DNA from: Escherichia coli
GTDB taxonomy: Bacteria > Pseudomonadota > Gammaproteobacteria > Enterobacterales > Enterobacteriaceae
DNA: 64,000 nucleotides
Strand: one strand, 5' to 3'
Assembly: GCF_044324875.1 (NCBI RefSeq)
Contig: NZ_CP172185.1
The notes under the pieces were generated by a model. That model had not been told where the DNA came from and ran no database searches. It worked only from the letters and a program-made list of their open reading frames with translations. This document shows, piece by piece, positions 26,638 to 27,651 of the stretch (the first letter of the stretch is position 1; each line of letters begins with the position of its first letter). The translations under genes were made by a program, and so were the position numbers.

Positions 26638-27651
26638 CTACTCTTCTTCGTTACCGCCCTCTTCATATTCTTCGTTACCGCCCTCTTCATACGGGCCAAA
26701 TGGCTTCGCGGGCAGAACGATATACGTGCCTTCAAACACTGCACCCGGCGTCTCGTCGCCAAAGATTTCGACCTGCATTTGTACCCGCGCTTTGCGCCCG
26801 CGCGCCAGACGGTCGAGATCGCCGCTTAAGGCACCGAGGTCGGCTACCGCATGAGGTTTACCGCTAATCGGCTTGCTGTAGCGAATATGCGCATCCGCCA
26901 GAATAATAGTTCCGCCCAGATGGCGTTCACGCAGCATCAGCCAGATAAGCCCCCAACCGGTGAGCGTTGCCAGTGAGAATAAACTCCCGGCAAACAGCGT
27001 ATGGTGCGGATTCTGATTGCCGGTTTCCGGCATGGTGGTGATAAATTTTTGCCCGGTATATTGCTGAATGCGCACGCCCATTTTTTCGCTTAGCGGGATA
27101 TGTTCGTACCACGCCTGCTGAAGCTGGGCGCACCAGTCGCCGCGATGCAAAATATCATCCAGAGTGGCGACAGGTTTAATCATCAAAAAATGGCGAATCG
27201 GCGTGGTGGTTGGCGTGGTGATTTCTCCCTGATTAACAAACCCCAGCTTGGCGAAAAACTCCACCGCGTCTTCGCGGGCGCTACAGGTCACGCGCTTAAC
27301 ACCTTCCTGACGCGCCACAGATTCGAGGGTCATCGCCATCAGCGTTCCTAACCCTTTGTCCTGCACGTCGGGATGAACGGCCATAAAGCGAATGGACGCT
27401 TCATTGTCGGCATTAATATACAGTCGGCCTACCGCCACCAGATTACCCTGCTCGTCGACGACCATCTGGTGATGCGCCATCGCATCCCACGCGTCGCGTT
27501 CCGAACCTTTCGGTTGATGCAGGGGCTTACGCAACATTTCCCAGCGAAACTGATAGTAACGCTCTAATTCTTCTTCTGTTTGTGGAACCCGAAGGTGATA
27601 CATAGCGATACTCTCTCTTGTTTCCCGTGACAACCCTGGAAGCTGGCTCAT
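26638..27651 (-). CDS. yiiD: GNAT acetyltransferase/thioesterase fusion protein YiiD (FabY) with a C-terminal 8-aa tandem duplication
   Basis: 337-aa ORF; perfect 24-bp tandem repeat at 26644-26691 encoding [16 protein letters not shown]. Confidence 0.88.

Follow-up and report, generated by a model that had tools for sequence, protein, structure and literature searches.

The fabY gene, also named yiiD or madA, was analysed in a window of 64,000 nucleotides of Escherichia coli DNA, the term window referring throughout to that whole stretch. The gene lies on the minus strand (26638..27651), encodes 337 aa when read from its first ATG and ends in a TAG stop at 26638-26640. The first-pass annotation had recognised the gene as yiiD, and the open reading frame list, the Pfam and TIGR02447 matches and the RefSeq annotation all agree with that assignment; among the complete E. 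coli genomes, RefSeq names the homologous gene fabY in 5,425. Upstream on the same strand (27648..28954) are its operon neighbours dtd (27648..28085) and yihY (28082..28954), identified from the open reading frame list, the annotation of homologous regions and gene calls. Overlaps of 4 bases connect yihY with dtd, and dtd with the long fabY start, and the position of fabY 3' of yihY-dtd is conserved in the chromosome, as seen in the open reading frame list and in the RefSeq annotation of homologous regions. Six nucleotides past the stop, sequence scanning and RNA folding located a terminator-like hairpin, GAGAGGGGCGGTGCTGCCTCTCTC, and after it a T-rich run (26608..26631, minus strand). The start of fabY is ambiguous (27601..27651): UniProt and older annotations begin at 27649-27651 with an ATG that overlaps the stop of dtd and gives 329 aa, or 337 aa here, whereas PGAP uses the second ATG, M17 (27601-27603), giving 313 aa in ordinary strains and 321 aa here. 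Most records of FabY homologues begin at M17, and residues 1-14 have a pLDDT below 50 in the AF2 model.

Two folded domains make up most of the protein. The GNAT (acetyltransferase-like) domain covers residues ~19-162 (27166..27597, minus strand); PF00583 matches residues 31-138 with E = 5.6e-16, the limits 19-162 are those of the published protein (PMC8666670), and the AF2 model gives this region a pLDDT of ~90. The hot-dog malonyl-ACP decarboxylase domain, YiiD_C, spans residues 171-314 (26710..27141, minus strand), the limits reported for MadA-C by Whaley et al. (PMC8666670), and is also seen in the AF2 model. Its scores exceed the curated cut-offs of both PF09500 (residues 174-313, 170.5 bits against 27) and TIGR02447 (164.2 against 97.1). 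This domain is homologous to that of MadB of Shewanella oneidensis (PDB 1T82, 155 aa; E = 2.8e-30, with the alignment ending at residue 314), and the two proteins have a conserved Asn catalytic loop in common. The conserved loop residues of MadB are Asn43, Asn45 and Phe51 (PMC8666670); in FabY, N212, N214 and F220 are present and invariant across a 61-sequence alignment (A1). Unlike FabY, MadB has neither a GNAT domain nor an acidic tail, and ends two residues past the Pro that closes the domain. FabY/YiiD/MadA is the malonyl-ACP decarboxylase through which fatty-acid synthesis can start independently of FabH (PMC8666670), with decarboxylase activity and rescue of a fabH deletion having been demonstrated for the 329-aa K-12 protein only (PMC8666670), and its Salmonella orthologue modulates cAMP and the succinate lag phase (PMC13353551). 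Beyond the hot-dog domain, the window's protein continues into a C-terminal tail (residues 315-337; 26641..26709, minus strand), which the AF2 model and the tail statistics described below set at 23 aa here and 15 aa in the references.

On its 3' side, fabY adjoins a low-GC accessory island (20400..26400), with a GC content of 0.36-0.48 against ~0.52 in the flanks, located between the fdh/yiiE side and fabY. The island contains a SopB-like open reading frame, an alpha/beta hydrolase gene, a gene for an HTH_3 protein and several small open reading frames with no Pfam match; strain 2012C-4221, among others, has a shorter or disrupted form of it. Direct repeats of ~105 bp with 87.6% identity (22421..22525 and 24238..24341) flank the alpha/beta-hydrolase gene (23256..24239). 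The SopB-like open reading frame, directly 3' of fabY (24408..26261, minus strand), is intact and encodes 617 aa, or 604 aa from the ATG chosen by the gene callers; its GC content is 0.36 against ~0.52 in the flanks. No match was found for the protein in Pfam, NCBIfam or the PDB sequences. It carries GCKSAKDRT, an exact instance of the CX5R motif that is catalytic in inositol polyphosphate 4-phosphatases (PMC3248162, PMC10631434), and C499, D504 and R505 are invariant in its small family (50 representatives among 1.84 billion proteins). Its AF2 model, a confident one (pLDDT 86.3, pTM 0.87), has Salmonella SopB as best match (8jzl, E = 1.7e-7), followed by Legionella SidP and SidF. The modelled structure suggests a SopB/INPP4-like phosphatase fold and a possible role as a phosphoinositide-phosphatase-type effector. 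RefSeq labels the C-terminal half a "transposase" (WP_097364885.1) and the N-terminal half a partial hypothetical protein, an annotation that appears to be mistaken. At least 80% of the length of this region is present in 1,061 of the 5,426 complete E. coli genomes.

The last codons of fabY contain an exact repeat. At 26644..26691 the 24-bp unit TTCTTCGTTACCGCCCTCTTCATA occurs twice, head to tail and in frame within the open reading frame 26638..27651, as read from the raw sequence and from Tandem Repeats Finder (TRF), which reported a period of 24, 2.0 copies, 100% matches and 0 indels. The perfect duplication at the yiiD 3' end described by the first-pass annotation is thus borne out. According to TRF, the sequence and the codon view, the copy that comes first in the protein, and second on the plus strand, encodes residues 321-328 (YEEGGNEE; 26668..26691, minus strand), and the other copy, 100% identical to it, encodes residues 329-336 (YEEGGNEE; 26644..26667, minus strand) and is followed by GAG (E337). 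The array comprises exactly 48 bases and allows no rotation, since the C preceding it differs from the last A of the unit and the C following it differs from the first T. Such an exact 24-nt tandem duplicate would be expected by chance ~2e-10 times in a random 64-kb window (64,000 x 4^-24), and TRF found no other perfect tandem array in the window. Run over the whole window, TRF also reported an imperfect tandem array at 16009..16130 (period 23/47, 2.4-4.3 copies, 69-83% matches, consensus approximately TGGCATCCGAATCGATCACAATT), which lies within or near the open reading frames 15328..16122 and 16123..17769.

In the protein, the duplication raises the length from 329 to 337 aa, or from 313 to 321 aa when counted from the PGAP start. 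The eight residues added to the acidic C-terminal tail were originally reported as EEGGNEEY, and the codon view confirms them; EEGGNEEY and YEEGGNEE are two spellings of one event. The length of 329 aa given for K-12 in the same annotation was also correct, as the single-copy form of the window's protein is FABY_ECOLI, with 329 aa. Compared with K-12 FabY (UniProt P0ADQ2, 329 aa), the window's protein is identical at every residue outside the insertion, and the domains, the yihY-dtd-fabY order and the terminator are common to both. The difference is confined to the tail, which has eight additional residues (YEEGGNEE), 23 aa instead of 15, and E-x-G-G-N twice. Both the GNAT and the hot-dog domain lie outside the duplication and are unaltered.

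The AF2 model of the window's FabY, built on 61 homologues, has a mean pLDDT of 81.4, with the last strand at residues 301-313 and a pLDDT below 50 for residues 318-337. The end of the Pfam match at 313, the end of the 1T82 alignment at 314, the published limits 171-314 and the low pLDDT together place the duplicated residues in what is predicted to be a disordered acidic tail. With the duplication, the net side-chain charge of this tail changes from about -4 to -8, and both the domain-tail junction and the extreme C-terminus, GGNEEE, are kept. The tail carries a moderately conserved motif, P-[LY]-E-x-G-G-[NS], which is doubled in the window's protein. Its conservation was followed in 122 near-full-length representatives of 90%-identity clusters from Enterobacterales, the comparison covering one representative per cluster. 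The tail after Pro314 is strongly modal in length among them, with 15 aa in 77/122; E-x-G-G-[NS] occurs in 75 of the 122, and occurs twice in a single one, the window's own protein. In alignment A1 the core columns of the tail are 64-72% conserved, compared with an alignment mean of 75% (P320 in 39/61 sequences, L/Y321 in 49/61, E322 in 44/61, G324 in 41/61, G325 in 39/61 and N/S326 in 43/61). The conservation of this motif indicates that the tail is under some constraint and is not a free spacer, and therefore that its doubling could matter. The tail is nevertheless dispensable for the chemistry of the family, because MadB, an active decarboxylase, lacks one. The published MadA-C construct comprised residues 171-329 and thus included the tail (PMC8666670), and no statement on the tail was found in either of the two YiiD papers (PMC8666670, PMC13353551).

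The one-copy form is the ordinary state of the gene. One copy is present in 5,425 of the 5,426 complete E. coli genomes, and a 40-mer centred on the novel junction had 0 matches in the 5,426 genomes by megablast. This is a true negative, since the 40-mer has a DUST score of 5.7, and masking sets in at 20; low-complexity masking, considered as a cause of the negative search, was ruled out on the same figures. With longer queries of 301 nt and 121 nt, every one of the best full-length matches fell short of the query by exactly 24 nt. The junction was likewise absent from 100,044 GTDB species representatives (one genome each) and from JGI metagenome contigs, and the FabY tails of Salmonella, Citrobacter, Enterobacter and Kosakonia are single-copy. 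Removing one unit from the window's protein yields FABY_ECOLI exactly, a sequence present on at least 1,000 contigs. The case in which reference YiiD sequences already held both units, which had been named as the one that would overturn the first-pass annotation, can be set aside, as the references carry one unit. The duplication arose on the ordinary allele, since the window's protein otherwise matches K-12 FabY at every residue, and the identity of the two copies together with the near-identity of the carriers described below points to a recent and single origin.

No near-clonal single-copy genome was found among the complete genomes, the closest reaching 99.4% in the fabY-dtd-yihY and hemN-polA flanks. 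The carrier clone is therefore not represented among the complete genomes, and the age of the event is only loosely bracketed. An alternative polarity, with two copies as the original form or as an import acquired through recombination with a different species, and with the later loss of one copy in most E. coli, has no more than logical possibility in its favour; the flanking core genes of the carrier lineage do differ by at least 0.6% from those of all complete genomes. However, all outgroup genera examined are single-copy, the junction is absent from the GTDB representatives, the two copies are 100% identical in DNA and the remaining protein is identical to K-12 FabY; we consider an ancestral or imported two-copy form extremely improbable. 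The duplication is thus a derived state.

The allele initially appeared to be very rare, as an exact look-up of the 337-aa form returned 2 contigs. When the 321-aa form starting at M17 was looked up, 104 index blocks and at least 52 contigs contained it, with records from NCBI, UniRef, ENA and Logan. Carriers of this form include EHS0463261.1, EII4855858.1, EIQ9235144.1, EIX4564870.1, GCA_002467655.1, GCA_044091345.1 and GCA_958308375.1. Extreme rarity was accordingly rejected, the gap between 2 and at least 52 contigs being due to the choice of start codon. Five carrier loci were fetched (L001, L002, L004, L005 and L006), three from GenBank and two from Logan assemblies of raw SRA runs (SRR31139386 and SRR31121307). 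Exactly two copies were present in all five as well as in the window. Over 13-17 kb the carriers and the window are 0-4 SNPs apart, the private and common SNPs differing among them, and these few but distinct SNPs indicate independent isolates of one tight clone. No paper on the carrier lineage was found through the assembly and run accessions.

An error of assembly or sequencing, with the second copy absent from the organism, had been a general concern of the first-pass annotation, and the 2 contigs with the 337-aa form alone could have been read in that way. This explanation is practically excluded by the occurrence of the 321-aa form in NCBI, ENA and Logan data (at least 52 contigs, 104 index blocks), by the five two-copy loci from different samples that can be told apart by their SNPs, and by the size of the array, whose 48 bp fit within a single short read. 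The presence of the allele in many independent assemblies, including the two Logan assemblies of SRA runs, therefore excludes an assembly error.

Upstream of the operon, an IS1 element (29114..29811; insA 29114..29389, insB 29308..29811) abuts a truncated yihM (29822..30184) in the interval 29058..30184, and the similarity between the window's strain and other carriers of the fabY allele ends at 29058. The window's strain has lost the yihN-yihX sulfoquinovose catabolism cluster, which L004-L006 retain.

Whether the repeat varies in copy number was a further question, as the first-pass annotation had proposed a possible length-variable locus. In bacteria, coding variable-number tandem repeats (VNTRs) and contingency loci are in-frame tandem-repeat length polymorphisms, and two perfect tandem copies are in principle prone to further slippage. 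The fabY array resembles such loci in its head-to-tail unit, whose length is a multiple of three and changes the protein length without a frameshift. It differs from them in having only two copies and no copy-number polymorphism within or outside the clone, and in its host gene, FabY being a cytoplasmic housekeeping-type enzyme and not a surface or phase-variable protein. Copy number takes only two values: nearly all sequences have a single copy, and one clone has two. Proteins with three or four copies, read from either start, were absent from a collection of ~15 billion proteins. Recurrent independent expansions find no support either, given the absence of the junction from the GTDB and JGI sets, the doubled motif in just 1 of the 122 cluster representatives and the near-identity of the carriers over 13-17 kb. 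A contingency-type locus, in which the 24-bp unit expands and contracts in the population, could draw on the two perfect 24-bp copies as a possible substrate for more slippage. Against it, 0 of the 5,426 genomes have two or more copies, the carriers are all two-copy despite their SNP divergence, proteins with three or four copies are absent, and the tail is modal at 15 aa across Enterobacterales. Such a locus is thus very unlikely, and the proposal of length variability does not hold. The two-copy allele marks a clone and is neither a switch nor a VNTR.

The first-pass annotation had also called the duplication a recent slippage event. Its recency agrees with the identical copies, the tight clone and the single-copy outgroups, whereas slippage is an inference, and no microhomology was found in the sequence at the ends of the duplicated unit. 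The ancestral sequence does contain GAAGAG repeats, but these are spaced 18 nt apart and not 24, and would predict a different product. Replication slippage or misalignment is most likely the mechanism of the duplication, although the lack of microhomology and the 18-nt spacing of GAAGAG leave slippage a reasonable but unproven label. The 3' end of fabY also holds an imperfect inverted repeat, CGTTCTGCCCGCG...GGGCGGTAACG (26655..26725, minus strand), for which a hairpin is predicted in mRNA and, at -10 kcal/mol, in single-stranded DNA; its 3' arm falls within the duplicated unit. It was considered as a trigger of the duplication and was not retained: it overlaps the unit, but no link to the event was established. 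No Rfam family matched the duplication region. The terminator hairpin is unchanged, and RNA folding predicts the same fold for it with one or two copies.

In summary, the duplication in fabY is real, in frame and derived, belongs to one clone, is fixed at two copies and lies outside the folded domains. The reading that we regard as highly probable is that of a duplication with a single origin, specific to one clone and stably inherited, with most likely little functional effect. Under this reading, one 24-bp in-frame tandem duplication would have arisen a single time, in the ancestor of an E. coli clone, on an ordinary single-copy allele and most likely by replication misalignment, and the two-copy allele would have been stably inherited in the clone since. 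The disordered acidic tail has grown from 15 to 23 residues, with YEEGGNEE doubled, and the GNAT domain, the hot-dog domain, the catalytic Asn loop, the C-terminus ending in GGNEEE and the terminator are all intact. Most likely the enzyme is functional and the phenotype changes little or not at all.

An adaptive origin would require that the tail motif act as a functional short linear motif, with a docking or autoinhibitory role, and that its doubling was selected and alters the regulation of FabY or the binding of a partner. The motif is conserved across genera even though the tail is predicted to be disordered, the clone in which the allele is fixed has been sampled at least 52 times, and the duplication is precise, preserving the surroundings of the motif on the domain side as well as at the C-terminus; these points speak for such a role. 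However, the single origin, with no recurrence elsewhere, gives no signal of convergence, hitch-hiking or drift would fix an allele in one clone just as readily, and the chemistry of the family works in the tail-less MadB, with no function known for the tail. Selection on the doubled motif is therefore unlikely. Slightly less likely again is the more specific proposal that the conserved motif, with the acidic residues that follow it, docks or autoinhibits, for example by covering the basic surface to which acidic ACP binds or by bringing in a protein that partners the GNAT domain, so that the doubled form would be a regulation-changing allele. If the tail motif were functional, the clone would carry a natural gain- or change-of-regulation allele, which would link fatty-acid initiation and cAMP control to lineage-specific adaptation.

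As a clone-specific duplication of probably little effect, the allele has little wide biological weight, FabY/MadA being already characterised and the change being a length allele of one clone in a disordered tail. Its uses are more practical. The 48-bp array offers a clean, PCR-sized marker of the clone, and the 2 against at least 52 occurrences returned by the two look-up forms are a caution on the choice of start codon. For the FabY family, the allele is a natural insertion indicating that eight more residues can be accommodated in the tail, and it points to the conserved motif that the tail contains.
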